Positions 10,521-64,000 of a stretch of 64,000 bases of DNA are shown here, in pieces. Origin of the DNA: Marsupella aquatica. Its lineage: Eukaryota > Plantae > Marchantiophyta. The stretch lies in assembly GCA_973895155.1 (NCBI GenBank), contig OZ316891.1:2865801-2929800 (forward strand). Reading direction: 5' to 3'. Each line of letters opens with the position of its first letter. The first letter of the stretch is position 1. A program made the translations under genes and the position numbers. The notes below the pieces were generated by a model, which saw only the letters and a list, made by a program, of their open reading frames with translations, ran no database searches and was not told where the DNA came from.

Positions 10521-13500
10521 ATGGCTCCAAGGTTGCCTCTTCACAACCCATTTAGGATTAGGCATCATGATTCTAAATTGTGGATGCGTGAACAAGCCCG
10601 GGCCGCCCAAGGTAGGAGTAGGAGGATGAGATGCCCATGCACACAGTGCCAAGGATTCAAGTCGTTGAGTTTGAACACTGTGCACCTTCACCTGCTGCGG
10701 CATGAAAGGCACCCTCGGTGGAGGGTTTGGAATGTACCAGCAGAAGAAGACTCCTCTGATGAAGAGTGGAGAGCTGACTTTGTGGATTCTAATACAGCTA
10801 GGCGTAGAGACTACGTAGAGCAGGACATAGACTGTGCAGAGGATGGTCCTGGGGTCCAACATGAGAACGTGGATGACCAAGATGGAGATGCAGAGGCAGT
10901 CACTGAGGACGGTGGGATGGATGTCCCAAGAATGGTTCAAGAGATTTTTGAAGACCTTGATGCTTTTTACGACACAGTGGAATCAGAAGAGGACAATGAA
11001 CCACAGCCACACATTGGCGACGGCCAAGCTCAACCTGACTTTGACATTGGGGAAGGTGCAACAAAGAGGGAGTGGGTGTTTGGGGGCCCAAAACACATCA
11101 AAGAAGCTTGCATTCCTATCTACGAGGGGTCGAACTGCTCCAAGCTGGGTTTTGTCGTGTTGTTGTTGAACATCTGTGGCAATCACAATGTTCCCAATAT
11201 ATTTGTGATAGAGTTGTTGACCTTCCTGCGCTGAAATGTGTTACCAGATGGTAATTCAATTCCAAAAAATATGTACGAGGCTAGGAAATTGATGTCTAAC
11301 CTTGGGCTGAACTATGTGTCTATTGACGCATGCCCTGATGGGTGTGTTCTCTTTCGCAAAGAGCATGCAGATAAATTGACATGCCCTCATTGTGGTAAGC
11401 ACAGGTACAAGAATGTAGGGAAATGTACACACCCTGCCAAGGTTCTTCGTCATTTTCCTCTCATTCCTAGACTACAACGTCTGTTTAGATGCCCTGCCAT
11501 TTCCAAGCTGATGACATGGACTCCTGATAACAAGAGCAGTGATGGCCTGCAGCGTCACATTGGAGATTCCAACCATTGGAAATTTGTTGATGAGAGGTGG
11601 CCACAGTTTGCTGTAGAGAAGCGGAACTTTCGATTTGGTCTATCACTGGATGGAGTAAACCCATTTGGAGACAAAAACAACCGTTATTCATGTTGGCCGG
11701 TTACGCTGCTAAATTACAACCTTCCCCCATGGATGACTACAAAGAGGTTTTTTGTCATGATGGTGCTGTTAATCCCTGGACCAGCTTCTGTGACCGAGCA
11801 ATTCATAGATATCATGTTGGCTCCAGCAGTGGAAGAGTGGAAGACTTTGTGGATAGAAGGGGTGTTAACCCATGATGTTCTGAAGGGGCTTCTTCGACCC
11901 AGCCCCTTTAGACTGCATGCAATTTGTTTGCTGGATATAGCAGATTACCCAGGCCATGGCATCATATCTGGACGAGTGACAAAGGGCTATGTGGGGTGCA
12001 CACCATGTGGGAAAAATGTGACAAGTGAGTGGTCGCATGCCCTGCACAATATGAAATTTCAGGGGCATAGAAGGTATCTGCCTGTTGATCATCCTTACAG
12101 GCACACACGGTCTCAAATTGCACACTTCAACAACAAAACAGAGCTTCGTGGCCCACCACAGAGGGTCACCAGAGAGCAAGTCCTGAGGTGGGCAGCCAGG
12201 AAGGCTGATTGGGACAAGAGAAGTGCCACTGATCGAGAACCTGAGGATCCAGTGGTGAAACACGGTGTGAAAAGACAGACCTTGATGGACTTGGAGTTGG
12301 AGTACTGGAGGGTAATGTACTTAGCCTCCAGCCCCTGTATGATTGCAATTTTAGATTGGAGCAATGGTGGATTGATGTTGGTTACAATCCTCTTATGTGG
12401 TTAATTAGTGTTTATGTTGTTGAATTCTTTGCTTTGTGGAGTGCAGGAATTCGAGCCCAGCAAACACAATGTGGACGTCATGCACATTGAGAAAAATATT
12501 TGTGAGAGCTTGCTGAAGTTCTTGTCGGGTGAGAAAGATACAGGAGCAGTTCGAGCTGATATGCAACAGAAGGGGATTCGCCCTCACCTTTGGTTGAAGC
12601 CCCATGCAAGCAATCCCAATGTACTTCTCAAGTTCCAAGCTCCCTATGTGTGCACACAGGATGAATGGAAGACATTCTTGTATAGATTGAGCTGTCTGAA
12701 AGTGCCCTCTGGCTATGCTGGTGCCTTCAAGAAGCATATTACAAAGAATAAACTTGGCAGTATGAAAACACATGACTACCATGTGTTGATGCAGCACATT
12801 CTGCCCCTATGCCTCAGAGGTCTCATGCAGAAACCAGTCCGTAATGTCATTCTTTGACTGTGCAATGTATTTCGCCGTATATGTGTGAAAGTGTGGGATC
12901 CCCAAGGATTGGAGCAGTTGAAGCAGGATGCTGCTTATGTCCTCTGTGACTTGGAGATATACTTCCCCCCTGCTTTCTTTGATGTTATGACTCATCTCCT
13001 AATCCATGTGGTAGAAGAGCTAGGGCAGTATGGGCCAGTCAGTACCAGATGGATGTACCCTATGGAGCGATACATGAAGTTGTTGAAAGGTCATGTGAGA
13101 ACATACTACAGGCCAGAGGCTTCCATGGCATTGGGGTACATTAAGGATGAGATGTTGGGATTCCTAACAGAGTACATGGCTGGGTCTGGTGAAGCTATGA
13201 CAAGAGTTTGGAAATCTGGTGAAGATGATGGAGTGAGTGGCGAGGTTGTTGAAGGTGTGGGACGTGCTGTTCAGCTGCCTGTTGCGATTCGAGACAAGGC
13301 TCATTCATATGTGCTGGCAAACACAGAGCCTATGCAACCATGGTGGAGGTGAGTGATTGAATTGACTTGCCTTTGTTGTGATGCTTCTTGTCTGTTCCAA
13401 GGGTGATCTTAGGTTGTCATGTGTTGTTTAGACCTAACTATGCCTGTACCTCATATTGCAGGGAATATGATATGCAAAAAGCTGCACACTCTGGGCAGCA

Positions 13501-14221
13501 GGATCCTTTCCCACAGTTCGAGCAGTGGATTCGGGTGACAATTCGAGAGCATAGTAGACATCACCCAGATATGGAGAAGGATTTGTATCTTCTATCTGTG
13601 CCACCACGATTGTCTATTCTGACCTACAAACGGATGAGAGCTTATGGAAATCATTATCGAGTGAGGGATGAGCAGGGTGACCATTGTGTATCATATGATT
13701 GTGGTTTGATTTCTGTGTTTGAGCAGAGAACCTCTAAAGAACAGAGGGGGTGGATGAAGATGGGTTACGTGGGGGAGTTGACCGACATTTGGGTGTTGAA
13801 TTATGGTAACACAAGTGTCCCAGTGATATTGATGAAGGGATCATGGGTGAAATCAGAGTGGCAGAGACCAAGGGCCACCATGAAGTGTGATCATGATGGG
13901 TTCTTGTTGGCCAATTTTAGGTCCAGAGTACCAGAATGGTCTGAGCCTTTTGTTTTCCCTAGCCAAGTTGAACAGGCTTTCTTTGCAGATGTGGAGGAGT
14001 CACATGGCTGGAGGGTGGTATGCCATAGCCAAGCACGGAACAGGCGGATGGATGGAAGTAAAGTAGAGTTCAGTTTGGATGACCATGCTGCATTCGAGCA
14101 TCCTAGTCATGAGACTGTACTTCCAACTCGGGCAGGGACTGACTACATCCCCTTAACATTGAGAGAGACATATGATGAACCTGGGCAAATGGAATATGAT
14201 GAGGTTGATGATTTGCAATAG
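10521..14221 (+). pseudogene. CACTA TnpD-type transposase, spliced, with two in-frame TGA stops
   Basis: RCPCTQC, IDACPDGC, LSLDGVNPF, YNLPPW, DYPGHG, HNVDVMHIEKN, MKTHDYH, FFDVMTHLLIH, WMYPMER, EPFVFPSQVEQAF; introns 12312-12446 and ~13349-13461; stops at 11232 and 12855. Confidence 0.95.
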
Positions 14222-45387: not shown

Positions 45388-48168
45388 TGTCATGAGATGA
45401 GAATGTTGGATTCAAGTTGGGATGCAAGATATCTCACGTTTCCATAAACACTACTGACTGGAGTTATTCCGAGCTCAGTCTTTAGAAGTGAGAAATAGAC
45501 AGTACATACAGTGCGACAGTGAAGTAGCTTCAATCGAAGGCAAGTATTTGAGTTAAATTCAGTTGTTCACATTTCCTTTGTACTCAATTACAATTATTTT
45601 AGACTTAGAGTTGGTTGGTGTTGATAGTAAAGGCTGCAACAAGCTAGATTGAATATTGCCTCAAAAGTGGTGTGTGCTAGAAAAATGCTCTTTGTCAGAA
45701 TGATATTAGCTTAAAGCACAAATCATAGGGAAGCAATTAGTCATTAGAAACCAAATGGGCATAAAATAAGGCCCTTAAGCCTTTGTAAAGGGCACCTGCC
45801 CAGATTTCTCCTTAATCTGCCCGAAAAACATTTGACGGATGAGATTAATTGCATCTAAGGTATCGTGAAAGGAATTGGCAAGCAGTTCTCTAAAGAAAGT
45901 TGGGATCTCTTTTGATTGTGGCGTAAGTACAGTACGTGTATGTACGTACGTAGATGTTGACAGGAATGCGGATCGTGAATGAGCCGACTCTGTCACTCCC
46001 TTTCCAAAGGAAACAGTCAAAATTGCATCCCGCGGGAGTGTTGCTGGCTTGCATGGAACTGACTTTTTGCGGGAGGAATGCCGAGGCATAGTGAATCATT
46101 TTTGAACCTTTCTCTCAACTGAATTGGATTTGAAGTGTTTGGTCAAATCCAATACCTTCCAAAGACAATCCGCGGGAGTGAAACTGAGGAGCGATGAGTA
46201 GAGTGTGCATCAAAAAGTAGAATTGAGTTGAATAGTGGAACATTGGAATGGTGAATTGAGCAGGGCGGTGCGATGGCGTCCCGATGGGCAGGAGGAATGT
46301 TGACAATGCCATACTGTGCAGCCAAAATGTATAAGATTGGGCAATTCTGCCCCGTGGGATTGTCATGGTTTTTGAGATTTGTGAGTTTAGAAATAGACTA
46401 AATAGCTCCACAATTCAAGCATCGTTATGTGGTAGACTTAGCGTCGACTTCAGGCCTTGCCAGTGCCATCAAATTGGAAGAGGAATAGTCTATTTTCCTG
46501 CTTTCAATTCACTCGCGACAGCAGCAATAGCTACAGGGAAGTGACTCGAGCGCAAACAAATTGTGGATGCAAAGATTAATTGAGCTTCCACTCGTGATCT
46601 TTCCATGCAAAGATTCAATAGCGAGGAGTGTGCACTGTCGGGTAGCAAATTGCGAGGATCGGAGAAGCTGGGACCAGGATAAGATTCGCACTGAGCCTTG
46701 GCCAAGAGTGAGCAGTGTTTGCACTGCCGGGTAGCAAATTTTAAGGATCAGCCACAAGCCTTTGTCGGCTTGCTGTGCAATTTTTTGCCTCTATTTACTT
46801 CTATGGGCCAGGCGATAGATCAGGCGATTCTGAATTGTTGAGGTACGAGAATTGTCCAATTGTTTAATTTGTAGAAAGCGTTCTTGCACTTTTGGTTCTG
46901 CACTGTGGTCATGTTCTCGTCATGCTGTGCTGTGTACAACTACATTGTCATGCTTTTCTCCTGTTTATGATGACCTGTAGAAGGGAATTTGTCGCTTGTG
47001 CTGCACGAGGTCTCCCAAGTTTAAGCCACGGACCATACTCGTCCAACTAGTCATCACATTTACAGGTATCCAATCTTGCCAATCATGCGGTTGTGCCTGG
47101 TTGCGTCTTTGACCAGGTTCAAGAATTCTCTGCTTAGTTATGAAATTTGCTTTTCAGTGGATCCCTGATTTGCTCCGCTGATGAAACAAGGCCCAGCCTT
47201 TGCTTAACCGGTGTGTAGGGGAGCAAGTTGGTGCAGCTGTCGGCCCTGAAGCAAATAGAGAGGAGACGGAGAAGCCTTTTGCACTTTTACTAAGAAAACA
47301 TACAAAGCAGTGAGTGCGCATCCGAACTTCTGCTCAATTTGTTCCTACTTACTGAAAATTGTTTGGTTTAGTGTCGACATTTACTGTACACAGGCTCCTG
47401 GTCTGCTACTGATGTCTGCTCTATGAATCTATGGTACGCATCAGAATAATGGATGTCAGGCTAATGCATTTTTGTTTTTGAAATTTACAGGCCAGTAGCT
47501 GAGTAGCGATCCACGTCGAGTTAAGCTAAAGCTTGTGAGATTTTTACTGACCATTCTAAGTGAGTTGAGAGACAGAACTAGTGGCGACAAGTGGGAATGC
47601 AAACACTCCCGCATGGTTGCTCCTTGTTTTGTCACTCAACAAGCTTCCAATTACTACTCAGTCTCGTGCAAAACCCCTGTATTCATCATGGTTGCCATAA
47701 GGCCAATTTACATGGAGAGTTTCTATCCTGAGAATGCGACTATAGATACCCTATTTAACTTGGTCCCCTTAGTGGATAATTGATAACTCTTTTTAAACTC
47801 ATGTTTACAGGAGTGTGTTTGGGAAGCCAACAATACCCGAATTGGTCTGCTTACACATATATTTGGACATTTCTTGAGGTTAGTGTAGACATAAAACCTA
47901 AGTAAAACCCCTGCTTTGCTAATTTATCGATTGAATGTGTCTAAACCTATATAATCCTTAATTGACTTGACTAGCCTAATGGCATGGTTTTTGTTTATGA
48001 GGGTATTAATACATTCTCATCAGAGTTTAATTCCTAGTACTGTTCATTTGATTTTTTAAAATTTGAAGTGAATGCTTAGGACCAGATGGGCACGGCTCAG
48101 AGGAGGTTCCAGCTATCATTGTTGGTGAACGTAGCATTCCAGGGAAAAAGAAAAAGAGAAAGTCTCAC

Positions 48169-49734
48169 TTGTCTAAGCCTGATATTGCTAAGAAGCAAAG
48201 ACTAAATGGGGCCATTAGACATAAGTGGATGGCAACTTGGTACCTTAACCTTGTTAACATCAGCATGGTAGAAGATGAATATAGCACACCTGGAACTCCT
48301 TATGGCCTTCACATGTTTGTCCAATTTCTGTTTGAAATTGGAAAGGAGGCAATATCCGAATTCTTAGCAGATTTGATAGCCTCCGAAGGTAATATAGACA
48401 AAGCCAGCAAAGAGGACAACGCCTTGTTGGAGATGTGCAAGCAAGGTGCTTTGAATTGGAAACGCGAGTGGGCCCTTTGGTTGGATTCTGCAGAGAAGAA
48501 GGAGTGGATTACTACGGAGGAGGGGGCATTAGTGTGGGGGGTGTTCACAACTGATGAGGCTTTCCTGACCAACCGCAACACTCTAGCTGAGGAGATAGAA
48601 GGGTGGTTCAATGCATCAAGTGGGTCTACAGGAAGAGTGGTGACCCAAAGACAGGTTGATGAGCCCATTACAGACCCCTCCCTTACTTGTATCTCATTGA
48701 AGGACCTATACTCTCCTTGGGATGATAGTTCACATATTTGCAGTGATTCTCAACATGATTATCACCTTGTCCGTTTTGTTGGGGTGCATCTTGTTAACTT
48801 ATTTGGAGCATCCATGGTGTATGTGGCCAAACGCTTTAAGAGAGTTAACTATGAACGCCATATCTTGCCTCAACACCGCATGTTTTCAGAAATGCAGGTT
48901 TGTGGGGTAAGGATGTGTGGATTAGTTAACCCTGTAGCCATGATAAATGATTATGAGTGTCCAACACTCATTTTTCCATACTGGAATGGAGGGACATTGG
49001 AAGACATGTTGGGCCACTTGAGGGAATTTCAAAACAACCGAATGTTGGGATTCAATGAGGCACCAGAGCAAAGATTGGCCATTTTTATGGACAGTTGCTT
49101 AGAGATTTCCCTTGCCCTTTTAGAGACACTCCGATGTATGCATTCAAAGGGGTGGCTTCACAATAGCCTGCATGCTAGAAACATCCTTTTACATTTTCCA
49201 ACATGGCAATGGACTAAAAAGGGAGAGCAAAAAGTGACTGGGACCACTGATCTTGTGTTTGTTGGCATCTCAAACTTTGGAAGATGTTGCAAAGTCATGG
49301 GAACAAAAGAGGACTGGGCTCCCAAGTTTGGAGAATGGAATTGGGAAATCAACCCAGTTGGCCCCCCTCGTCACATAGCCCCTGAGTTGTATATGGGGGA
49401 GAACAACCGACTTTCTCCCTCTGACGGGTCAAGATTTTACACTGAGCTCACTGATGTCTATGCTCTTGGCACCTCAATTAGAGGGATGTGCAAAAACTAC
49501 TTTGAAGGTTGGGAAAGGGTGCATTACATTGGTTGGCATGATAGATTGGATCATACACAGGCCTTTAGAGATAAGAAGGGAGTGGCAAGTAGGTTAGTGC
49601 ATCTTTTACACCGTTTGGCACATCCAGACATGAAGATTCGGAAAACAGCAAAGACTAATGCAAGGCAATGGAAAGAGGATCTGGGTGTGAACTCTAGAAA
49701 TGTGTATAGGCCATTGGCTGGATGGTTTACTTAG
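48169..49734 (+). CDS. Protein-kinase-fold protein, probably catalytically dead; further upstream exons likely at ~46980-48170
   Basis: VAKRF, PYWNGGTL, WLHNSLHARNILL (HxD is HNS), GISNFG (DFG is NFG), HIAPEL, TDVYALG; the track start is TTG, so the true start is uncertain. Confidence 0.75.
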   Translation: MSKPDIAKKQRLNGAIRHKWMATWYLNLVNISMVEDEYSTPGTPYGLHMFVQFLFEIGKEAISEFLADLIASEGNIDKASKEDNALLEMCKQGALNWKREWALWLDSAEKKEWITTEEGALVWGVFTTDEAFLTNRNTLAEEIEGWFNASSGSTGRVVTQRQVDEPITDPSLTCISLKDLYSPWDDSSHICSDSQHDYHLVRFVGVHLVNLFGASMVYVAKRFKRVNYERHILPQHRMFSEMQVCGVRMCGLVNPVAMINDYECPTLIFPYWNGGTLEDMLGHLREFQNNRMLGFNEAPEQRLAIFMDSCLEISLALLETLRCMHSKGWLHNSLHARNILLHFPTWQWTKKGEQKVTGTTDLVFVGISNFGRCCKVMGTKEDWAPKFGEWNWEINPVGPPRHIAPELYMGENNRLSPSDGSRFYTELTDVYALGTSIRGMCKNYFEGWERVHYIGWHDRLDHTQAFRDKKGVASRLVHLLHRLAHPDMKIRKTAKTNARQWKEDLGVNSRNVYRPLAGWFT

Positions 49735-50101: not shown

Positions 50102-52933
50102 ATGATGGCCTTGGCAGATGTCACCAACAAATGGGGCAAGGCCTATGAAATTCGCTTTTCAGTGGATCCCAAATTTGCTCCGCTGATCAAACGGGGGCTC
50201 AACATTGATTTACAAACGCAAAAAAAGTCTTTTTCAACAAAAAGGGAAGAGGGGTGCACAAATCTTGACTTGTGGATAGATGGAGGCATATACCCTAGAG
50301 ATCCAAGGACTAACTTAGCTCCCCAGTTCACCAATTTAAAAGAACTTGTGGTCTTCTTTTGCCTTGGGAAAAATGGGTTTTATGGGTATGCCCAAAGCCT
50401 TGCACAAGAGCATGACAGAACTCGTGAGAGAGAAGAACATGCTCTTGCCATCAAAGGCCTAGAAATTGATAAGAGTGTTTTATTAAAGGATAATCTTCAG
50501 TCAAGGGTAGAAAATTTGGGTTTGTTGGCGAAGATAAGGTCATTGGGAGATGACAAGGAGCAGATGTTAGAGAGGATTACTGAGCTAGAGGAAAGCTTAG
50601 CAAGACAAATACAGGTTGTGCAAGACCTGAACCTGGCACATAGAAGAGCATTGCAAGGCAGGAGCAAAGTGTTTGCTTCATTGCGATACAAATACGAGAA
50701 GCTGTTGCGAGATGGATCGACAGGTTCGCAAAAGGAAAAATTTGACAAAGCTTAGCCAAACAGGTGGGCATGCAAAGAAACTGAAACGCCAAGTTCGTTC
50801 CCTACTACAAGCAAGCACAACGAAGCAGGCTCAGGAACAGAATGCAGCAAGTGGGACAAAACAACACTTTTGTGGAGATGTTGATGCACAAAGGCATAGT
50901 GCTATCTTAATTGCAAGCATGTTGACAAAAAGGGAGAAGGAATATATGGTGCAACAACCCAACATGACAACAACAATTGTGAAGGCCACAAACAATTTAC
51001 TCACTGAGGTTGGAGATCATGTCCAAGCTAGTGATATGTTGGCTGCGTGTGACACAACAGGTGTATCTCAAAAAGGATTTGCTGCAATCCGTAAAACTTT
51101 GAAGAATGGCTTCAAGGTTGTGCATCCACAATTGAAGCTTGCAGCTGCTGTTCCAAGTTCACATCAAGTGACCAAGTTGCGGACAGAGTACAATGCAAAC
51201 CTGTCGCAACTCATTGGTGACTACAAAAGCCTACACATGGAGCTTCCGGATGCTCCAACATAAAAAAAGGCCAAAACCACTGATGGTTCCAAACCAAAGA
51301 AGATATTGCTAAGTGACAAGAATTCTCTATTCGTTGATCTTGAAGTGGTTCAAAAAAATATGGTCAATTTTTATGGAATCACTAAGGAGGAGATTGGTGA
51401 AGCTCCACTACTTTTTGTGCTCAAACTTGACGAGGCAGAGATTGTGAAAAATCAGAAGTTTGAAAGAGTCTCCATCACCCTTATGAATCGAGCATTGGAT
51501 AGCACAATCCTACATGATGATCCTCGATACTTCTCGGTGCAATCCGATCGTGATATTTGGCCTGTGGCTTGCTTTGAGGTGGCAAAGGAGTCGCATGCAC
51601 AACTTAAATACATCTTTGGTCATACATCATTTCCAATGGTCATTGAAGCACAAGAAGCAGGGAAGTTGCTGCAAGTCCCTGGAATGGGGGAATACAAAGT
51701 GGAATGGCATCTTACAGCTGACATGAAGACAATTAAGTGCATGTATGGTTTGCAACATGGTGCAAATGCCAAACACTCATGCATATATTGTCTTCAAGAG
51801 AAATCAAGTAAAGAAGCACTGGGGAGTGATACTGCTGCAAAGAAAGCTGCTAAACTTCGACAACAACCTTCTTGGAAAGGTGGGCTATTCTCCACATGTT
51901 TTGGAGCTGAACCTAGCCGTGGGACCTCAACTGATGTTGTTTGGGACCCAATATTTGCAATACCATTGACAAGGGTTCACATTTGCACATTGCATGCCAA
52001 TGTTCGAATGGTGGAGAAAATTTTGCATCTCCATTTCATGTTTGTTTGGAACATGCAAAATAAGGGTTTGCAAGTGAAAGCCATACAAGAAATGGAAGAT
52101 TCTTTGTCATCTGCCGGAGTTCATGGAGGTAATGTGCGAATATTCAAAGATCCAAATCTTTCGGGATCAACAGGGAGTGTCCCAAATCGACCTAGCATGA
52201 ATGGAGCGCATGTTGCTAGGTTATTCAAAAGAAGCTCATCGTCAGATAAGGAGAAAATTTGGATGGATATATGTGCCGCTGATAATCATAATGGGCAAGG
52301 CGGAAAATTGTCTAGGATGCGCATGTGGAAAGCTTACGAGGAGTTGCAACCATACCTCACTGGGCTAACCTTGACTGCCTCACAAAGGGTGGCATTCAAG
52401 GACAAGATTGAGAATTGGGGTTGGTTGTATATTGAAGCCTTTGGTGAGCACCATGTGACTCACTACATGGTAAGTGGCTATATTATGAGTGACCCTTATT
52501 TGCATAATAGTGCCATAGATAGACACCGCAATATTTTAGTGAGAACTTCCATCAGTTGTTCCTGGCTACATCAATAAATATCGTGAAAGTATACTGGCAT
52601 TATATCTAATGTTGGCTTTGCCCACAACTCTTCTGATGATTGCAGCATGTTTTGGTTCGGCATGCGCCTTGGTTTGTGGACAAGTATGGGAGTTTGTCAG
52701 TTTGGAGTTCTCAAGGTATGGAAAAAAGTCACTCATCAGCTAAATCAGCATACCAACGACACACACAACATGGTGGCACAAAGAACCGGACATCACCAGT
52801 AGTGCAGACATTTCAACATTGGTACCGTATTATACAACACCGAGAGAATAGCAAACTGAAACTTGCACATGCAGAGGACACAATATCCCATGGTGTCACA
52901 ATGACCAATGAAGAAGATGAGAGTGCAATGTGA
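50102..52933 (+). pseudogene. RAG1/Transib-like (or Chapaev-related) DDE transposase; frameshift near 50710, TAA at 51261-51263, intron 52470-52645
   Basis: FVLKLDE; QSDRDIWPV...KES; TADMKTIKCMYGL...HSCIYC; CTLHANVR; MNGAHVARLF; after splicing YMHVLVRHAPWFVDKYGSLSVWSSQGMEKSH. Confidence 0.85.
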
Positions 52934-53196
52934 CCTCTTGAAATAGTCAACTGATGCACAATAGTTTTCATTTACTTGTGGCAAGAGTGTACATTGAAGT
53001 AGATCTTTACATTCCTGAGTAGCTACCTACTATGCCATGGAGTAAGGATGGCATGGCTTTGTTTACACTGGGCATACTTTAGGAGCAAAAAGTGACCAAC
53101 GAAATAGGTTGCAAAAGGCTGTTGCATTTTATTGATGATAGATTCATAGACCTACTAGCTAGCTAGGCAGCTTTACACATGACTTGCAATGTGGTC

Positions 53197-54612
53197 CTAC
53201 ACTTTTTTAATGCGGAGAAAATTTCCTTCGCCAATGTCCTGGACTAGCATCACCTTCTCCTTCCTTGCATTTATCTGCAGATTCACAAGTACTGAAGTCA
53301 TCAATTATAGTTGAATGGTAAGGGTTAAAAAAGTGAATGATTAGAATGTGACTTTTAGTTAAGCTGCACAAAATAGTATACCAATTACCTTCTCCCAACG
53401 TCCCTTCTTTGTTGGCCTAACAATGCCAAACAGGAAAGTAGTCTCAGCATCCTCTGAGTTGATGTAGAAGCACACTTCTTCCCGCAGATCTCGTAAGCCC
53501 CAATTTTTTCCAACATCCAAGTTCACATGTGTTCCATCAAAAAGTTCAACCTCTAGGTCCATCATTTCAACAGCATTAGCTTGGTCCATTGCAACCCACA
53601 CATCTCGCACAAGCCGTTCACGCACATAACCAAAAGTCACATACAACATTTGTCGTCCCACATGGTACCTAAAACCAATCGATGGTCGAAGAACATGACA
53701 CTTAATAATGTCATTTGCAGCCTCAATTTTAACATCCCAACCTGGATCCATTAGAGATGCAAGTAGGGCTTCAGAAGCTGGTTTGAAGACACACAAGGTC
53801 TTAGTTTGACGCATTCCCATACCCCCTTCAACATTAAAAAGGTCTATCATGATATGGATTGGCATGAACCAACTTACTCTACACACACGGCCACCTGTAC
53901 TTGATTTCATTGCCAAATGGAAGTCCCCAAAGAGTCTAGCACGAAATGATTCACTGCTGCTCATATCTGGAACTGGCCACGAGGGATCTTGGAATGGAGG
54001 AAGAGGTATAGCTGTCAAGGTTCCAAACTTCCCTTTTTTCAAGGGTGGTATATAGGCCGCATCATAAAACAAGATGCTAGAATGTAGCAACTCCTTGTGG
54101 GTTCGAGTTCCTCGAGTGGCTTCACCAATCACTCCATGTCGCACCACAACCACATCCAAAATAGAAATTGGGTCTTGCCAATCTTCACACTTTGTTGGAT
54201 AAATATCTGTAAAGAACAATACAAGCAAATCAGTTAGACTTCCACCAAATACTAGTGGCCCAAGATAGTCATATAACCTAATGTCCAACATGGGATTAAC
54301 TATGGAGGCCTCACAGAATCACTTACAATTCAACCGGTTGCTTGGTACCCCATGAGAGTTTGACTTGACTTGCAATTGGCAATGATAATATGCATGTGAC
54401 ACCAAAATTGATTGTATTGATGATGAACCCGGAGTAAACTTGAAGTTTTTGACTTGGCCAACAATATCTTGTTTGGCCCATGGCCCTTTTTTTGGTGGGT
54501 TCAAAGTAACCCATGAACCTTTATCAATTCTTTTGGGAACCCAAACATCATTGTTGTCCCCCTTGATGTGGATGAGGACTGATTGGACCTCTGAGCGAGG
54601 GCGCTTCGTCAT
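53197..54612 (-). CDS. Intact 3-exon 393-aa protein, putative N-terminal BAH-like and C-terminal ubiquitin-like domains
   Basis: Exons 54612-54327, 54206-53389 and 53274-53197 with GT-AG introns join into 1182 nt with no internal stop; domain calls are by pattern only. Confidence 0.7.
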
Positions 54613-55258: not shown

Positions 55259-56648
55259 TGTAACCTGACTGCTAAATGAGTCACGGTTCTACACGTGGCA
55301 TTTTGAGTCGTGCCGATAAGCGGGGACGATGGCTGGAGTTGCGAGAGACGGAAGCGACGACACAGATGTAGCGACCGTGACTTGCAGAACCACCACCAGG
55401 ATCGGCAGCGTCAAAATGCCACCGCCTGCTCATCTCCATGGCTGCTCGCTATTGGGATTGATTGTTCCTACACAACCCAGCAACCTCGATGGACAAAAAT
55501 TGATCAACGCAGTAGGTGGATCGATCGGTTTCCTACACGACAAAGCAATGTCGAAGGACCACTGCAAATGGATGTGAATCCGAGCGCAGACGAGGACAGC
55601 ATGGTGAGTCGATCAATCGAAAGAATAGGAGAGGGTTATTAGTTTGGCACGAGCTTGCTTCAATCAAACTGGAGCGGAGTGTTGGGTTCAGGAGAGCTGC
55701 AGAGCATAGCAGAGGAGAAGAGAGGAGAGCCTGAAAGGAGACGTCCTTCATGAGTGACTTGACCGGAAGCAACCTTGGGTGTGCGAATTAGATTCACTCA
55801 TCCCTTGTCACCGCCTGTCATGTCTCTCAGTTGGAGACTTGAATTCAAGGTGTGGATTGCCAACTAATGGTTTCTATAAGAACACAACCGGCAGCATGTG
55901 CAATTCAACTTCAGGCAGCTCTCACCTTCAATTACACTGGGCCTGTAACCAAAGCATTCACATCCACAAAACCAAACTTAGCCCCAATCGAATGTCACAT
56001 TCTAACTGAATGAAAGAGTCCCGTTACTTCCCAAATCAAAAATCATGTGAAACGCGACCATTCACGAAACCAAAATTAGCCCCAATCAAATGTCACATTC
56101 TAACTGAAGAAAAGTCAGAGTCTTTACTTCTTCCCCAATCTGGAATCCTGCATTAGCCAGTGGCAAATCAGTCACAAAATGAGCTCCGTGTTTGAGCCAT
56201 CATTAATCCCCGCAGAAAGTCTACTCAAATGTGACAATCAATTCATCACCCTCGACGAAGTGACCGCAGTTGAGAAATCAGTGATACCTGGACTAGGACC
56301 TGGAGATTTCTAAGAGAGAATGAGCCAGAGGATAGGATTGTAAACTCGTCCATGCATGATTGATCAAGAAGCGCGCTAGCTACAGCACATAAACTCTTAC
56401 ATAGACACTTATGCATTCAAGACTTTGGATGCGCCGGTGCACAAAGCCTTGCCTAGTTTACAAATGATCTAGAGCAAACCTGAGCTAGTTATGTGTCGTT
56501 CTCGATTCTTGCCACCTCTCGATTGCTATCCATACTCTTGAGATGATTATGTACTTCCGGGTGCAAATATGAAATCTATCGGCACATCCAAATTTGAAGC
56601 ACACCTCATCGCGCGAGCGTATGCGCTAAGTTCCCTACTGTCACAACA
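55259..56648. mobile_element. Candidate LTR of a further retroelement (possibly the 3' LTR of the minus-strand element carrying 57198-63922)
   Basis: TGTAAC...ACAACA ends, internal ~50-bp direct repeat (55966, 56064) and a weak minus-strand purine tract at ~56650-56660; no TSD or partner LTR in the window. Confidence 0.3.
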
Positions 56649-58858
56649 TTAATCTCCCGACTACACTCGGCCATGCATTGCCAATTGCCTCAGCCAATGT
56701 GCTCTAGCTTGCGAGACCGCAAATTGGCCTGTATCCACATCTTAATCTGCAGCACACATTGCGTGAGCAGATGCAGCACTAAGTTCTCTAACATCAAGTT
56801 CATAAAGCTCCTGACTGCCCTCAGCCAGCTTGCAAGATCAATGGCGAATTAGTCCAATTTGCTTTCGTCTTGGCCCTCCCCCTTCGCGCCTTGCTTCGCG
56901 CCAAAGAGTACCTGGGTTTCTCTGCCACTTCGTACTCGATCTGTACAGTCTGGGCGTTTTGCCTTCTGGCCGCCTGGCCGCGCGATGTTGACTCCCCCTT
57001 TTTCTTTTGAATGGACCAAGGAGACGGTTCTTTTTTCCCTCTGACTGACACCCTAACTAGTGAGGTGGCACACCCATGAATCCATGGAAATGTACTTTGG
57101 GCAGCTTTGGGGCAGTCCTATGAAAACTTCTAAATTCCAGTCTTTAATTGTGGCAAAACTATTTCTAATGGAAGCAGAACTTTTGAATGTGTTTAGATTA
57201 CACCTGCCTCAAACGTAGGATAGCATTCTTCTTCTTCTTTGGTTTGGCAGCTGGCCCCTTCCCCTTGCCACTTACCTCCGGCACCGGTGCGAATGTCTTG
57301 GCTTGTCCTTCGGCCAGTACTACACCAGGTAACTTGGTTGCCCCAATTGGAGTTGGTCCTGAGGAAGCCAAGCACTTAAATACTGCGACCTGTTTCTTCA
57401 GCCGCTCCGTTTGGTTGTCGGCTTGCCGCTGTAAGTTTTCCATCTTCCGCGTGCTTTCCTCCAACTCCTCCTGCAATTCATCCAAGTCCTTGCGCGCCTC
57501 CTCTCGCTCCTTCTGGGCTTCCTCCAATTCCTTCTTTAAGGTCACCCTCTCCTCCTAGGTTGCTCTCAGCTCCTTGTCGAGCTCCGTAATGACCTCAGAC
57601 TCCATTTTATTCATCTTGGCATAAGTCTGGTCGAGCTGGTCGTCTTTCTCGCGGACGTCGGCCTTGAAGCTGGCCATCATGGATGCGAGCTCTTGCCACA
57701 GCACGATAATCTCCTGATAGGATTTCCCTAACTTGGCCTCCTTCTGCTCAAGGGCTTCGCGAATATCCTTGAGTTCCCCCTTCAGCGCCCTTTCCCTTCT
57801 CTGAGTTTCTGCCATGGCCCGATTGTTGGTTGCTATGTGGTCCTCCTCTGCGTCTCTCAGCTCTCGCTTCCACTTCTCCTTCTCCTTGATCGAATTGGCC
57901 AGATCACATTGGGTCCAAGTCAGTTTATCCTTGATAATTTGATTATCAGACTGTGCAGTATCCAATTGCCCTGCATGATGTTGAGCTCATGCCGCTTAAT
58001 CCACAGCTCATCTTGGACTTTCTTGGACGCCTCCAGGTCTTCTACCTCGGCTTCCCTTGCCCCAAGCCGACGGATGACCTTGTCCTTCTTGCTTCTTTCC
58101 AAAGCCACCGCTTCTTCTAATTGGTGCTTCTCCAACATTTCCCTCTGGAAAAAAGATCCCCAATGCTCCAACTCCTCCCCAAACATGCCGAGCGCAAGTT
58201 CCCCACACATCTCCCCGTACTCCATGGCTCATTCTTTAGCATAGGTGGAGTGAGTAGAAGTCATCGGCATAATCCACCACGGCCTTTGTTCCCAGGCAGC
58301 CTTGCGAATTTCTTCTATCGTGGCTGGCAAAATGCTTCATTTTTTCTGCAAGCCACCGGATGTCCTCTGGCCATTCTCCTCCTGGTAAATCCTTCTCCCT
58401 TGCCAGGACTGCCTCCTCTTCCTCCCTGCGTCGTTCCTGAAACTCCTCTCTTGTGCCGTCTGTTTTATGCCGTCAAAACTCGGGGGAGCGACATCTGGTG
58501 GGGGAGATTCGAGGCTCCTCTGCTGGGTCGGGTCCCCTCAAACTACTCTTGGAAGAGTGGGGATGAACCTGCCACAGGTCCTTATTCCTGGAACATGATG
58601 GTCCGACCCGTAGCCAGAGTCATCATTGTCGTAGCCTTCTACCGCCTCCTCCTTGGCTTGGACTACCAGCTCCCCCCGCTGCTATCCTGGTCCTGCCGTG
58701 AACGCAACCCCATAGATCACGGGTCCTGGTTCCTCCGGCTTCCACGTTGATCTCATCTTCTCCCTGTCGTGACCAGGGGCCTCGGGCTGCTTCTCCTCGG
58801 CTTCGCGACTTGAAGCTCCTACATATATTCGGACTCCCGGCTCGTGTTCCGGCCCCCT

Positions 58859-61800
58859 TGTCACGTCGTCAGCCTAGGCCTTAACCCGTGCTTCGGCTTA
58901 GACAGTCACATCCTTCGTCAAAATGAGGGTTCGGGCAGGGAGGGATGCACGGAATGCACCTAACTTACATAAACTAGCGCTAAGTGCACCTATGGTCATA
59001 TACGGACACCTCCTAGGTATGATTTGTGTTCCGCTGCCGGAACGTACCTCAGTCGATAGGAGGATCAACCCCGGCTTACGGGCTTCTAAGCCTTCGTGTT
59101 GTCCGCCTTCGATCCGGATTTGATGGTATGGGTACTAAACCCGGGCTTGCAACCACTTACCCGCAAGCTGCACCCCGTGCACGACTTGGGTAGTGCGTTT
59201 GGCCAAGCGTTGGCACCTATACATGAGATTCACACATATACATACGCACAAGCATACAACCTCAATTTACACGAAGGAAATAGTAGGAAAGGATTTTACT
59301 ACATAGGAGACATATGCGTACACTTAGTTGACCTGAAAGCCCTGGAATGAACAGGTCCGAGGCCGAGGGTGTACACTACAATGGAGCCTGGCTTCGCACT
59401 TGCCCAGCGAGCTTAGTCCTACACCCTTCCCTTGGTACTCTTTCACTCCCAGAGGTTGGGACTCCCCGCACATACCGCGGATGTCCAACACTGAGACTAA
59501 AAATCCCACCCCCCGCCTCTATCGAGGGGTGCACTAAATACTAAGGGCCAAGGAATGGAGTGCCCTCGCGCCCGAAGATTCGCTAGCTAAGGTCCTAACT
59601 AAGCTGGCTATCAGGCCGGAAAATGGCTTGTCTTATTAGAAGATCCTAATCTACGCAGGTTGTACAGCATGGCAGTGCTGCTCTAACTAGGGCAGTTGCT
59701 TGTCCCTATAGCCTAATTGAGCTATTCCTAACTCTACTCTAATCCTACTCCGCCGCTAATGCCTGGCACGCTTGCTAGAGCCGCCTGAGTGGGAACGACT
59801 ATCCCGTTGCCTTCTGAGCCTGTCGGCGTCCTGCTTGAGTAGCTGGACCTGATCCAGCAAAGATTCATTTTCTCGCTTCCCCGCGTCTACGTCTTGCGCG
59901 GCCTCCTGGCATGCCTCCTCCAGTTGTTGGGTGTCGCTCGTCAGTTTGTCCACCAACTAGGCCTGTTTTGTGGCTTCTCCTTGAAGCCATGCCACCTCTG
60001 CCTTTAGGGCGTCAATCTCGGCTGTGTCCTACTGAGACCTGGAGTCAGCTTCCTCCAGATCCTTTTGCCAACTGACGGCTTGCCCCTGCAAACCGTCAAT
60101 CTTGGTTCGGAGCCGCGCAATCTTGGCGTCCTTTCTAAGCCTGGCCTGTACTTCCAATGCTACTTGGGCTCTAGCCTCGGCGACCTGGTCTTCCATGGCC
60201 GTTACCTGAGGCTGTAGTTGCTGGAGTTCAGCCTCCAAGGTTGCCACTTCGTCCTTTAGGTAGGCAGACTTAACCTGATATCGCTCTATTCTCTGCGCAT
60301 GTCCTGCCCTTACTACCGCAACCAACTCCTGGTTGAAGAAGTAGGCCACCCTCCGGGCCATGTATTCCCCGGTGTCCCGAGAGATTTTTTGTGAGAAATC
60401 TCCCAACAACCCGTTCAGAAATGTGCCCGACGCAAAGAGTTCTGGATGGTCTAGACTATGTCCTTCGGGATTCGGGCACGGGCAGACTCCAACCCGTGCA
60501 GAAGTAGGAGTGGACACATCCAGCCCTTGAGGTAAGTCGGTCGAAGGGGATGGTTCCACTGGAGGTGGGTGGTTCTCCTGCACAACCGCGGGGAGTAGAG
60601 GATCTCCCTGGCTACCGTGGCATCTGCTTCGGGTATGGCTTCATCCGGCCCAGCTTTGATGGCATTGTCCCGATTGATCACGTCTAAGGTCGCGATAACG
60701 TCAATGGATATGCTTGGCGGGTTGCGGGGCCAGAAAGCAGGACTTGCAACTCCTAGACTTTGGGCCTTGGGCTGCGGTCACCTTACCTGGGCTGGGAACA
60801 CCCATTTTGGCGGGGTCAGCTCGGGCTCATTGAGACGCGGGAGGCTCCGGCGGTCGAAACAAGCATACCACTTGAGGATGATTTTGACGTGGCTAGCAAA
60901 GTACGCCCTCCCACCAAGGTACAAAGTCTTCCTTCTTTGCTCCATCTCCTCGTGGAACTTCTTGACAAAGAAGGACGCCCACTTCCTGGGCCAAAAGTTC
61001 TCCACCTGAATGACCTGAGCCGCCGATATTTCTCCTCTAGGTTCCATCATGTGGAGGGCATACCGCTGGAACTCTAGGCGTTCTGCTACCTCCGGGATGA
61101 GGCACGTCCCCATTAAGAACCCATTGTCCACTACCCCTTTGGCCGGGAAGCTAGAGGACTGGTATTTAGCTCCCTTGCCCCCAAGAGTGCGTAACTCTAC
61201 CCGGTTTATCCCCTCGGGTAAGCCGAAAATCATCTTTAGGCGCGCCTCATCAAGACACATCACTCTCCCGTGCGCTTGGGTTTGTTGACGGGCCTCGTCA
61301 AAGTTCTGAATGAACTCCGTCATATCCTGCCAGTAATACCTGCTCCCGTTCCAAGGGAGAGAGGTGAGGTGCTCAAACCCCTGGGTCTTCAGATAGCATG
61401 CATGCTTGGGGTGGAGGATGTTCTTGTGAATGTTGTCCCCCATGCGATGCATGGTCAGCTTGGCTACCGCAACCGTGGCCAAAGGCAACCCGGATACGGC
61501 TGCGGGCTCCTTCCTCTTCCTACCCCGAGACTGATTCCCGGGGTGACTAGAATAAGGGGACATCTCTCCATCCTCTTGGTCAAGTGGTGGTAGGGCGACT
61601 GCCGTGAGTATTGGTGCCGGGGCGCTAGCGTTACCGTGTTATCCCCCTTGGGCTTGCTGGGGTGGTGTGGTGTTGTTTGTACCCCGCGGTCGTCGATTCA
61701 AAGGAGGGTGAGCCTCCTCGTCTTTGGAGCTAATATGTACCGCATTCACCACGGATCGTACTCGAAGAGGTGGTGGAACTGGTGGCGGGGACCGGCTTGG

Positions 61801-62824
61801 CTGAGGTCGAGGAGGTGTAGGTACGGGTACTGGCACGGGTTGGCCGGCACTGGTCATTGATGGCAGAGTTGCCATGAAGTTCTGCAAGTGCCGGTGGAGG
61901 TTTTCCGACGCAAGTGGAGATGGTCCTGTCGACCGGGTAGTGTTGAACTCGCCCTTGATGATAGCCCAAACCCGAGCGGGGATGTGATCAAAGTGGTGCC
62001 TCTGTAAGTCGATCGTGCCCGGAATATTGAAGACCTCGTCCAAAAGGCGAAGCAGTGCCTCCCAACAACCGATGTATTTGCCTCCGTCGAAGAAGTACCC
62101 TGATACCTCTTTGGGTCGGTAAAGCTCGCTCTGGGACGGGTACTCAAAGTTAAGGAGATAGTGGTGTTGTCCTGCTTGGCGGATGGCTCTCTTGTATTCG
62201 CGTTCGATCTTGTAATGGCGCGGGTTAGCATGTTTCAATGAGTCGGCCAAGTGTCCTCCGATAGACAGGAACTGAGTCTAGAATCATATGGCCGAACTGG
62301 AAAGGATCGTGTGTGACATTCAGAGGAGATAGCAGGTGACTAAGGAAAAGCGAGAGAGCTAGGATCGAAGTTGGCGCGTGGACTGGAGAGCTTGGTGCAC
62401 TGCAAAGGATCAACCCCCTTTTTATACCCTGAGAGCTCGTCGATCGCCCGACGCCTCCTCGTCGCTTATAGGTCGAGCCTTTCACGCTTGCAATGTACCG
62501 GCCCCTTCTCCAGTCCGGGTCAGCTCGTGTCAGTGGCCCTTTTCTCCAGTCCGGGTCCGGCTCCAGGTCAGTCAGTCCGGCTCCGGCTCCAGTCCGGGTC
62601 AGCTTGTGTCAGGGCCCATGACACGCTCGCAACCCGGGCGTGCAAATGGCGACCCGCCGCCAGCCCGAACATGGATTCCCCTTATTGACTAATGATTTCC
62701 TACTCATAATGGCTACCTAAGTACTGTTGTTATGCTAATAATAACGGCCTAAGATACCCCTAACCTGCGTGCTAAGCGTGGTTAGACCAAATTACTCATT
62801 ACCCGCTGTACAGGCGGCGTCACA
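58859..62824 (-). mobile_element. Solo LTR (3966 bp) of a diverged relative of the 4-kb-LTR Gypsy
   Basis: TGTGACG...CGTGACA ends on the minus strand, colinear with 16123-20130; perfect 5-bp TSD CCCCT (58854-58858, 62825-62829). Confidence 0.95.
59756..62319 (-). pseudogene. Decayed copy of the LTR-encoded ORF inside the solo LTR
   Basis: MSHTILSSSAI*F*TQFL...ADSLKHANPR...RSHSGGSSKRARH; several stops and frameshifts. Confidence 0.92.
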
Positions 62825-64000
62825 CCCCTTCTCTCCTTGGCCCCGGTAAAGGGGTTTTCCCTGGTAAGTTGGCTAAGGCCAACTTTGGAAGCAGTATTTT
62901 GTACTGGCCCCGTTGCCGCTGTCGTTCTCCTTTCCTTCTCCAGCAATTTCAGCAGATTCTGCATGCTGGTTGCTGCATGGGCAAGTCCTCCTTCCTCGGC
63001 CTAAACACTTGCTCGATTGTAGGACTGTCGGGCTGGGTCGGTTTCTCTATTGTCGGCCTTGGTTCCGGAACCTCCTCTGGTGATCTTGCCTGCAGGGGCA
63101 GTACCGGGGTGAATATCTGGCTTCGGGCATATCGGCACAATAGCGGCATGTGATAACCAAGCCGGGACACGCTTCCCATGCCAATCACCAGCTGTTCCTC
63201 CTTCAAGATCTTCTTTAGTTGGGTTAGGAGGTACCCATTGTAGTCTCGGCTTGGGTCTGGCCTCTCCGCCAGATAGACCTGTGCCTTGCCGATCTCTGCC
63301 CTCGGCAAGTTACAATGCATGGTCACCCACAAGAAATCAATCATTTCTCCTATGTGCGGGTTGGTGCAGGTATTTCGGAAGAAGCCATTCTTTGTTGATG
63401 GCCCTGGAAATGACCGGAACTCCTTGTCTGGCAAGGTCTTCCTGGTATCTACTTTGGTCTTATTGCCCATCGGCAAGCCAAACACTTTGGCAATCACCCG
63501 GGGAGTGAGATAGAAATCCTTCCCATACACCCTTGTGGAATTGGTCTCGGGCTCCCATGATCCCACAAATTCTAGTAAGTCTGAATCCGGCACCTCCAGC
63601 TTCAGCCATGGTAATTTTACGAATGCTTCCAAGCCGGATCTGGCCATGAAGCCCTGGTATTTCCGAGTCTACATAACCGTAAAGCATGCATCCTCTTCCC
63701 GCGCAAAGTGTAATTGCACCTCCTTGGGGAGGATCGCCGCCCAGCCTTTCCAGGTGTCATCTCTTGTTGGAACGACATTGACGGGGTCGACCTCCTCCTC
63801 TTTGGCTTCCGCCTGCCTCTGCTTCCCTACTCTGCTGGTTTCCTGGGTGCCGCCGACCTTGTTCTTTTCGCAGGGGTGGCTTCTTCATTGTTGTTCCCTT
63901 TCCTCTTCATAGCGGCTGCCATGGATGTTTCTCCTAGCACGGTTGCCTCCGTCCACCCCTCCGTGCCACCCTTCAAATCCCAGTGTATGTCGTTGCAGCG

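Follow-up and report, generated by a model that had tools for sequence, protein, structure and literature searches.

A gene for predicted BAH and ubiquitin-like domains lies tail to tail with a RAG1-like transposase gene in the liverwort Marsupella aquatica

The 64,000-nucleotide window analysed here (Marsupella aquatica, contig OZ316891.1, positions 2,865,801 to 2,929,800 of the forward strand; coordinates below are window positions) contains a RAG1-like transposase gene and, convergent with it on the minus strand, a second gene that we refer to as the partner. The partner gene occupies 53197-54612, starts with an ATG at 54612 and encodes 393 aa in a 1182-nt coding sequence with a single terminal stop; removal of two GT..AG introns yields a frame without internal stops, whose product includes every peptide quoted in the initial annotation of this DNA. 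That annotation had described an intact three-exon gene of this length ending tail to tail 263 bp from the transposase stop, which splicing and coordinates bear out. Its span of 52646..54612 is right for the partner at 53197-54612, but its first 550 bp are the last transposase exon and the spacer. The gene is laid out as follows:

54327..54612, minus strand: partner exon 1 (286 nt), with the ATG at 54612, a basic N-terminal KRPR motif and the first half of the BAH domain; its junction is common to the Calypogeia fissa proteins
54207..54326, minus strand: partner intron 1 (120 nt, GT..AG), diverged in related contigs
53389..54206, minus strand: partner exon 2 (818 nt), with the second half of the BAH domain, the middle domain and most of the ubiquitin-like domain
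53275..53388, minus strand: partner intron 2 (114 nt, GT..AG), at a position identical in the metagenome loci L001 and L002
53197..53274, minus strand: partner exon 3 (78 nt including the stop), the end of the ubiquitin-like domain, without a terminal GG
52934..53196, no strand: spacer of 263 bp between the partner stop and the transposase stop

Both exon junctions coincide with those of annotated homologs from C. fissa, two of which read into intron 2 at the identical residue, and diverged contigs follow the partner exons and depart across both introns (joints 53290/53384 and 54211/54320), so the gene model is independently supported. The window protein aligns over its full length with a 394-aa C. 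fissa homolog (BLASTP, 62.8% identity over 395 columns with 3 gaps). The best-supported part of the 362 differences found over the compared stretch includes 39 listed exon differences, 25 of them synonymous against about 27% expected (p 2e-6), and the partner gene is therefore under purifying selection.

A search with exon 2 returned six homologs among 781 candidates, headed by the same 394-aa C. fissa protein, and a search over 1.84 billion representatives extended the family to 211 homologs with an E of 0.001 or lower. The members that have names belong to C. fissa, the moss Ceratodon purpureus, two ferns of the genus Adiantum and the green alga Pyramimonas. No relatives were found in the viral and prokaryote collections. 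The 12 annotated copies in C. fissa fall into two clusters, are spread over 11 contigs that all differ in length and are partly truncated, indicating repeat-like dispersal. In another member, protein P0070 (a cluster of 29), the entire three-domain unit described below is joined to a preceding N-terminal segment that contains a zinc ribbon (Pfam E 2.6e-5) and looks RadA-like; P0070 is possibly a domesticated or chimeric host gene.

An AlphaFold2 model of the C. fissa homolog P0001, built from a 140-row alignment, reached a predicted local distance difference test score (pLDDT) of 89.3 and a predicted template modelling score of 0.82 and has three domains, which correspond to the following parts of the window:

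53998..54600, minus strand: BAH domain, about residues 5-165, with the cage-equivalent codons Ile 54465-54463, His 54396-54394 and Tyr 54390-54388
53584..53979, minus strand: middle domain of alpha/beta type, roughly residues 172-303, modelled with confidence
53200..53574, minus strand: ubiquitin-like (beta-grasp) domain, roughly residues 307-393, interrupted by intron 2

Residues about 5-167 of P0001 are predicted to fold as a BAH domain, as evidenced by matches to EBS in Foldseek (E 1.1e-6) and to ORC1b in VIA (Z 13.5, root-mean-square deviation (rmsd) 2.8, 127 aligned); a sequence profile gives the same assignment independently of the model (BAHCC1 BAH, E 0.0012). Residues 309-394 are predicted to be ubiquitin-like (VIA Z 10.4, rmsd 1.8, 77 aligned; viral ubiquitin-like match at E 0.003), and since there is no terminal GG in the sequence, this is on that evidence an integral domain of the protein. 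Between them, residues 172-305 form a confidently modelled alpha/beta domain of about 130 residues, for which the whole-protein model gave no usable structural match, an uninformative result as the domain was never folded alone. A search of the structure atlas with the whole model produced leads only, all scoring below 0.9. The initial annotation had proposed a BAH-like N-terminus and a beta-grasp C-terminus, a proposal that was to fall if the two ends folded otherwise; structure prediction on the homolog gave the opposite outcome, with BAH and ubiquitin-like folds.

Sequence-level searches added little. Pfam gave no family above threshold for the partner pieces and, over 140 partner homologs, one weak BAH match (E 0.017) and two weak ubiquitin-like matches; single-sequence PDB searches yielded nothing useful, and the partner did not match the Pfam families of known plant accessory proteins (MURB, Harbinger Myb/SANT, TnpA, VANC). 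ZW10, the best profile match (E 0.0003), was rejected as a relative because it is missing from the listed fold matches.

The neighbouring transposase gene lies on the plus strand:

50102..51263, plus strand: transposase N-terminal part, in two frames with a change near 50715-50725 and an in-frame TAA at 51261-51263
51264..52469, plus strand: catalytic core exon, with KLDE (51423), ADMK (51717), CIYC (51780) and HICTLH (51978)
52470..52645, plus strand: intron of 176 nt, at a position common to many relatives
52646..52933, plus strand: last exon, carrying the H(4)H motif's second His as well as the catalytic Glu (QGMEKSH at 52712), and a tail shorter than in relatives

The frame change and the TAA mean that this transposase copy is broken, and the element copy is thus probably non-autonomous. 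Its tail, shorter than in loci L001, L002 and L006, may reflect decay or a feature of the lineage; a frameshifted remnant was considered and rejected, tblastn having found no continuation in other frames. The family comprises 109 homologs of 221-2010 aa, the named ones only from Klebsormidium and Adiantum. One Adiantum gene model, P0015, fuses a fragment of this transposase family to a reverse transcriptase and RNase H, probably through a nested insertion.

By sequence the transposase matched nothing in Pfam (none above threshold) or PDB, its profile found no sequence-level match to RAG1 or HzTransib chains, and it matched neither Transposase_21 nor the CACTA transposase encoded elsewhere in the window. 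A model of the full-length family member P0007 (pLDDT 75) has a predicted fold close to RAG1 (E 7.3e-11, Z 17.8) and HzTransib (E 2.4e-6, Z 15.6), with lancelet RAG1L also matched and the P element far lower (Z 8.2), consistent with the earlier proposal of a RAG1-like transposase. The window transposase itself carries the D, D and E residues together with CxxC and HxxxxH, which agrees with the CMCT clade as defined by a D-D-E in which C(2)C and H(3-4)H lie after the second D and ahead of the E (excerpts of PMC12730594). As these motifs define the whole CMCT clade, the RAG1 fold does not make the transposase a Transib or RAGL. To our knowledge most CMCT lineages have no solved structure, so that a RAG1 fold match cannot separate them.

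Linkage of the two genes was examined in metagenomes, where a scan with the transposase alignment recovered 11 loci. In the transposase tree, a quick version of 78 rows with no bootstrap and with long branches meeting, a clade of 45 rows (Shimodaira-Hasegawa-like approximate likelihood ratio support 100) unites the window with L001, L002, L006 and L007. Both loci of this clade that have sequence past the transposase stop, L001 and L002, carry the partner tail to tail (E 2.4e-49 in L001; the last exon at E 3e-5, best of 3720 open reading frames (ORFs), in L002), and keep its last intron at a transposase identity of only 51-54%. L006 and L007 end within the transposase and are uninformative, and L004, L008 and L009 are too short. 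The stops are 24 and 10 bp apart in L001 and L002, which have a longer transposase tail, hence the 263 bp of the window is not a conserved distance. Further evidence comes from single diverged contigs bridging the last exons of transposase and partner in runs X5 and X7 (52839 to 53204) and X6 (52946 to 53142), drawn from two studies other than those of the best-matching runs; run X1 contains a deleted copy joining 52718 to 53991. The tail-to-tail linkage is real, and the pairing claimed in the initial annotation recurs in the same orientation in L001, L002 and the bridging contigs rather than being peculiar to the window.

Conservation of position, strand and last intron next to transposases only 51-54% identical makes it very improbable that the partner is a host gene or an inert captured fragment adjoining the transposase by chance. 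The many dispersed, partly truncated C. fissa copies and the purifying selection among copies argue in the same direction. What such a chance neighbour would explain is an intact partner beside a dead transposase, the zinc-ribbon fusion in the 29-member P0070 cluster, which may be a domesticated host gene, and the lack of a C. fissa transposase protein among the matches.

Outside this clade, other genes occupy the slot behind the transposase. In a sister clade, L003 and L005 carry a divergent H3-like gene on the transposase strand (Pfam Histone E 5e-26 and 5e-34, respectively) directly after the transposase (L005:1723-2226 (+), L003:2208-2704 (+)); the L003 copy contains a stop, and a second ORF that starts like an H3 tail follows. 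L010 and L011, of a third clade, have an unrelated convergent gene behind the transposase (L010:3105-4572 (-), L011:1502-1988 (-)); these genes contain introns, are related to each other (38% over 53 aa) and match neither a Pfam family nor the BAH partner.

Such variation in one slot suggests an exchangeable, chromatin-directed cargo. This would suit an anti-silencing or chromatin-modulating factor with a role like that of VANC, one that targets the chromatin of the element or the host's silencing proteins and does not bind the transposase, and BAH domains are also known to bind silencing proteins, as in the matched structures Orc1-Sir1 (1zbx) and ASI1-SUVH6 (7xpk). The element is CpG-depleted (observed/expected 0.25-0.45), although a unique flank is likewise (0.39). 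We nevertheless regard an anti-silencing role, the leading alternative to the tethering proposed below, as somewhat unlikely, given that the middle domain received no assignment to a DNA-binding fold and that, according to excerpts of PMC12973397, most characterised plant accessory proteins bind their own transposase.

The initial annotation had also cast the partner as a chromatin reader in the sense of the RAG2 PHD, a view that the BAH domain does not support. BAH domains that read trimethylated lysine 27 of histone H3 (H3K27me3) have a Tyr-Trp-Tyr cage with a His and an Asp that recognise H3P30, and the W170A substitution abolishes binding by AIPP3 (both from excerpts of PMC7718874). Aligning the partner family to BAHCC1 places the second and third cage positions by sequence, and the first was inferred from spacing. 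Where the readers have Trp, 28 of 31 homologs have His and one has Trp; the third position is aromatic in all 31, and the first is aromatic in 26 of 30; the window itself has Ile, His and Tyr. The specificity His position is variable, with His not among its six commonest residues, and the Asp is kept in 15 of 22 homologs. The partner family thus keeps neither the Tyr-Trp-Tyr cage of the H3K27me3-reading group nor its combination of His and Asp for H3P30 recognition. With the cage Trp changed to His and the specificity His not kept, methyl-lysine reading by the partner is unlikely as judged from these residues. The partner BAH region is also basic (pI 9.7-10), whereas the AIPP3 BAH has an acidic cleft (PMC7718874, in part).

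It follows that a strict RAG2-like subunit, with a BAH domain reading a methylated histone lysine and targeting the transposase to that mark, is improbable, the more so as the window also lacks the first aromatic. The top Foldseek matches are indeed the methyl-lysine readers EBS and BAHCC1, two of the three cage-equivalent positions are aromatic in the family, and the convergent layout resembles that of RAG1L and RAG2L (PMC7204232, in part). A novel cage built with His may exist in these proteins, and if the Trp-to-His change is conserved it would define a new BAH subtype. More likely, by analogy with the BAH domains of Orc1, Sir3 and ASI1, the partner BAH binds the nucleosome surface or a protein. 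The fold is common to EBS, SHL, AIPP3, BAHCC1, Orc1 and Sir3 (Z 10-13.5), at an identity of only 8-17%, and the partner differs from all of these in adding the middle and ubiquitin-like domains.

The partner is likely an accessory gene, directed at chromatin, of a CMCT-clade transposon with several genes. More specifically, we posit, with a probability of roughly 45%, that it is the accessory gene of a clade of RAG1-fold transposons and that its protein tethers the transposase to chromatin. Within one clade of plant DNA transposons, the partner has retained its tail-to-tail arrangement with a RAG1-fold transposase; its basic BAH domain would, like those of Sir3 or Orc1, contact the surface of the nucleosome or another protein rather than methyl-lysine, and the middle or ubiquitin-like domain would bind the transposase or a host factor. 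Together, these contacts could aid target access or insertion. Direct binding of the transposase is described for accessory proteins of Mutator-like elements (MULEs), PIF/Harbinger and CACTA (excerpts of PMC12973397).

Several points weigh against the tethering proposal. The fold models were built from homologs (partner P0001, transposase P0007) rather than from the window's own proteins, and the linkage sample is small. None of the four informative loci of other clades has the partner directly behind the transposase, so across the family the partner is no obligate subunit in this slot. Despite 12 partner copies, C. fissa is absent from the 109 transposase matches of 221-2010 aa, with proteins below 221 aa not searched, although this may reflect annotation. 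The window copy departs from its family in having Ile at the first cage position, the charge of a whole domain is weak evidence for a binding mode, and no terminal inverted repeat (TIR) with an adjacent target-site duplication (TSD) was found in the window, where inverted pairs occur at chance level only.

A broader hypothesis, which we consider unlikely as it stands, is that seed-free plants and green algae host a RAG1-fold transposon lineage with its own two-part transpososome, in which the BAH-ubiquitin-like subunit would bind the transposase and steer it to nucleosomes, with sister clades using a histone H3 variant or another protein instead.

The extent of the element can be approximated from contig depth, which delimits a low-copy block at about 45.7 to 57.1 kb flanked by high-copy repeats. 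Run X6 contains diverged pieces along this block and none in the unique 43.0-44.3 kb flank. Three further features lie within or near its edges:

48067..49734, plus strand: kinase-like ORF inside the low-copy block, in which the catalytic Asp is missing (LHNSLHARN) and NFG replaces DFG (Pfam Pkinase E 4.4e-7)
45742..45750, plus strand: candidate left end, a 9-bp arm starting CA near the left edge of the block
57162..57170, minus strand: candidate right end, the inverted 9-bp arm near the right edge of the block

The kinase-like ORF probably belongs to the element. Kinase and transposase were not seen together on any contig from elsewhere, and the kinase had no match in the 11 metagenome loci, which hold little upstream sequence. 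Transposons of the CMCT clade are characterised by CA..TG termini, TIRs and a TSD of 2-5 bp. The candidate arms should be read with caution, since 9-bp pairs are expected by chance among the 66 x 187 tested, and the 5 bases after the right arm recur 7 nt before the left one, displaced rather than as an adjacent TSD. A GGGC-starting inverted pair at 45757/55229 was rejected as ends, being at chance level and without a TSD. Upstream of the kinase-like ORF, window:47139-47208 is a decayed duplicate with 80% identity to the transposase 5' coding segment 50144-50213, and additional genes of the element may have left the decayed reading frames at window:46800-47900 and 55900-57100, within the block.

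Elsewhere in the window, an ORF with NSD-like PHD fingers (window:7330-8037, Pfam E 1.2e-5) lies upstream of a CACTA transposase (11235-12404, Transposase_21) and a DUF4216 gene (13382-14221), another case of a chromatin-type domain near a DNA transposon. A motif of 19-24 bp occurs in six to seven copies in both orientations at window:34021-34623, like the subterminal repeats of a DNA transposon. Gypsy-like retroelements were recognised by gag/pol motifs at window:16589-29316 and 57226-64000, with an extra coiled-coil ORF occurring twice (880 and 878 aa); copy number is high at the right end of the window.

Among described transposons, the closest named group is probably Lanisha, cut-and-paste DNA transposons from the moss C. 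purpureus that are enriched on its V chromosome (excerpts of Carey et al. 2021, PMC8245031; GenBank MT647524), which at 110.5 Mb makes up 30% of the genome, and that Kojima 2025 places in the CMCT clade (excerpts of PMC12730594). Lanisha resembles the window element in its bryophyte host, cut-and-paste DDE transposase and C(2)C and H(3-4)H motifs, a comparison by description only, on which basis the element may be Lanisha. The partner homolog KC19_VG147200 sits on a C. purpureus sequence of 110.5 Mb, which equals the V chromosome in size, and thus appears to lie on that chromosome; as a single gene on so large a share of the genome, this is circumstantial only. The earlier view of an undescribed transposon is doubtful, as a moss cut-and-paste superfamily of the same clade has already been named, and Lanisha descriptions may already cover the partner ORF. 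No description of a BAH and ubiquitin-like gene in a transposon was found in the literature searched, including excerpts of PMC8355894 and PMC12130436. A BAH domain may also occur in Plavaka transposases, but the search turned up no paper that mentions the two together. If the element is Lanisha, the present analysis provides a fold and a functional hypothesis for the genes of a superfamily that makes up as much as 5.8% of a moss sex chromosome.

With Transib (HzTransib) and the CMCT groups EnSpm/CACTA, Mirage, Chapaev, Plavaka and ESTA, the window element shares D-D-E, CxxC and HxxxxH, and with HzTransib the predicted fold; it differs from them in being multi-gene and intron-bearing and in not matching Transposase_21. 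Transib and RAGL proper are marked by TIRs resembling a CAC heptamer and by a 5-bp TSD. Tao et al. 2022 reported 39 plant Transib-like proteins (PMC9435367), in whose supplement the bryophyte and fern names had no match. As in the window, a second gene is kept with a DDE transposase in MuDR (MURB), PIF/Harbinger (the Myb/SANT protein), CACTA (TnpA) and VANDAL (VANC). The mudrA and mudrB genes are convergent too, so that a convergent arrangement by itself says little for a RAG2-like role. The MURB, Harbinger and CACTA partners bind their transposase (PMC12973397, in part). The window partner has a BAH and ubiquitin-like architecture.

RAGL/ProtoRAG and vertebrate RAG1-RAG2 have in common with the window element a RAG1-fold transposase and a convergent second gene that encodes a chromatin-type domain. 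Kelch and PHD domains, together with convergent linkage, define RAG2L (excerpts of PMC7204232 and PMC10629977), and RAG2 also binds its transposase, which needs it for cleavage. Close convergent linkage to a RAG1-like gene is seen in the window, L001, L002 and the bridging contigs. RAG2 is a six-bladed kelch propeller with a PHD, in contrast to the BAH-middle-ubiquitin-like partner, and the model of the 394-aa homolog has no kelch fold, its three domains ending in BAH and beta-grasp; the suggestion that the partner is analogous but not homologous to RAG2 therefore agrees with the predicted structure. The window element further differs from RAGL in that no TIRs like recombination signal sequences were found and in that the second gene changes between clades of the transposase family. 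Few independent cases bear on how RAG1 came to need a partner that reads chromatin, and a RAG1-fold transposase whose second gene differs by clade (BAH-ubiquitin-like, H3-like and a third) makes partner recruitment comparable and testable. If the two-part transpososome hypothesised above is true, the RAG1-RAG2 type of partnership would have arisen a second time independently, and the clades would form a natural series in which to test how a lone transposase gains a chromatin-targeting partner.

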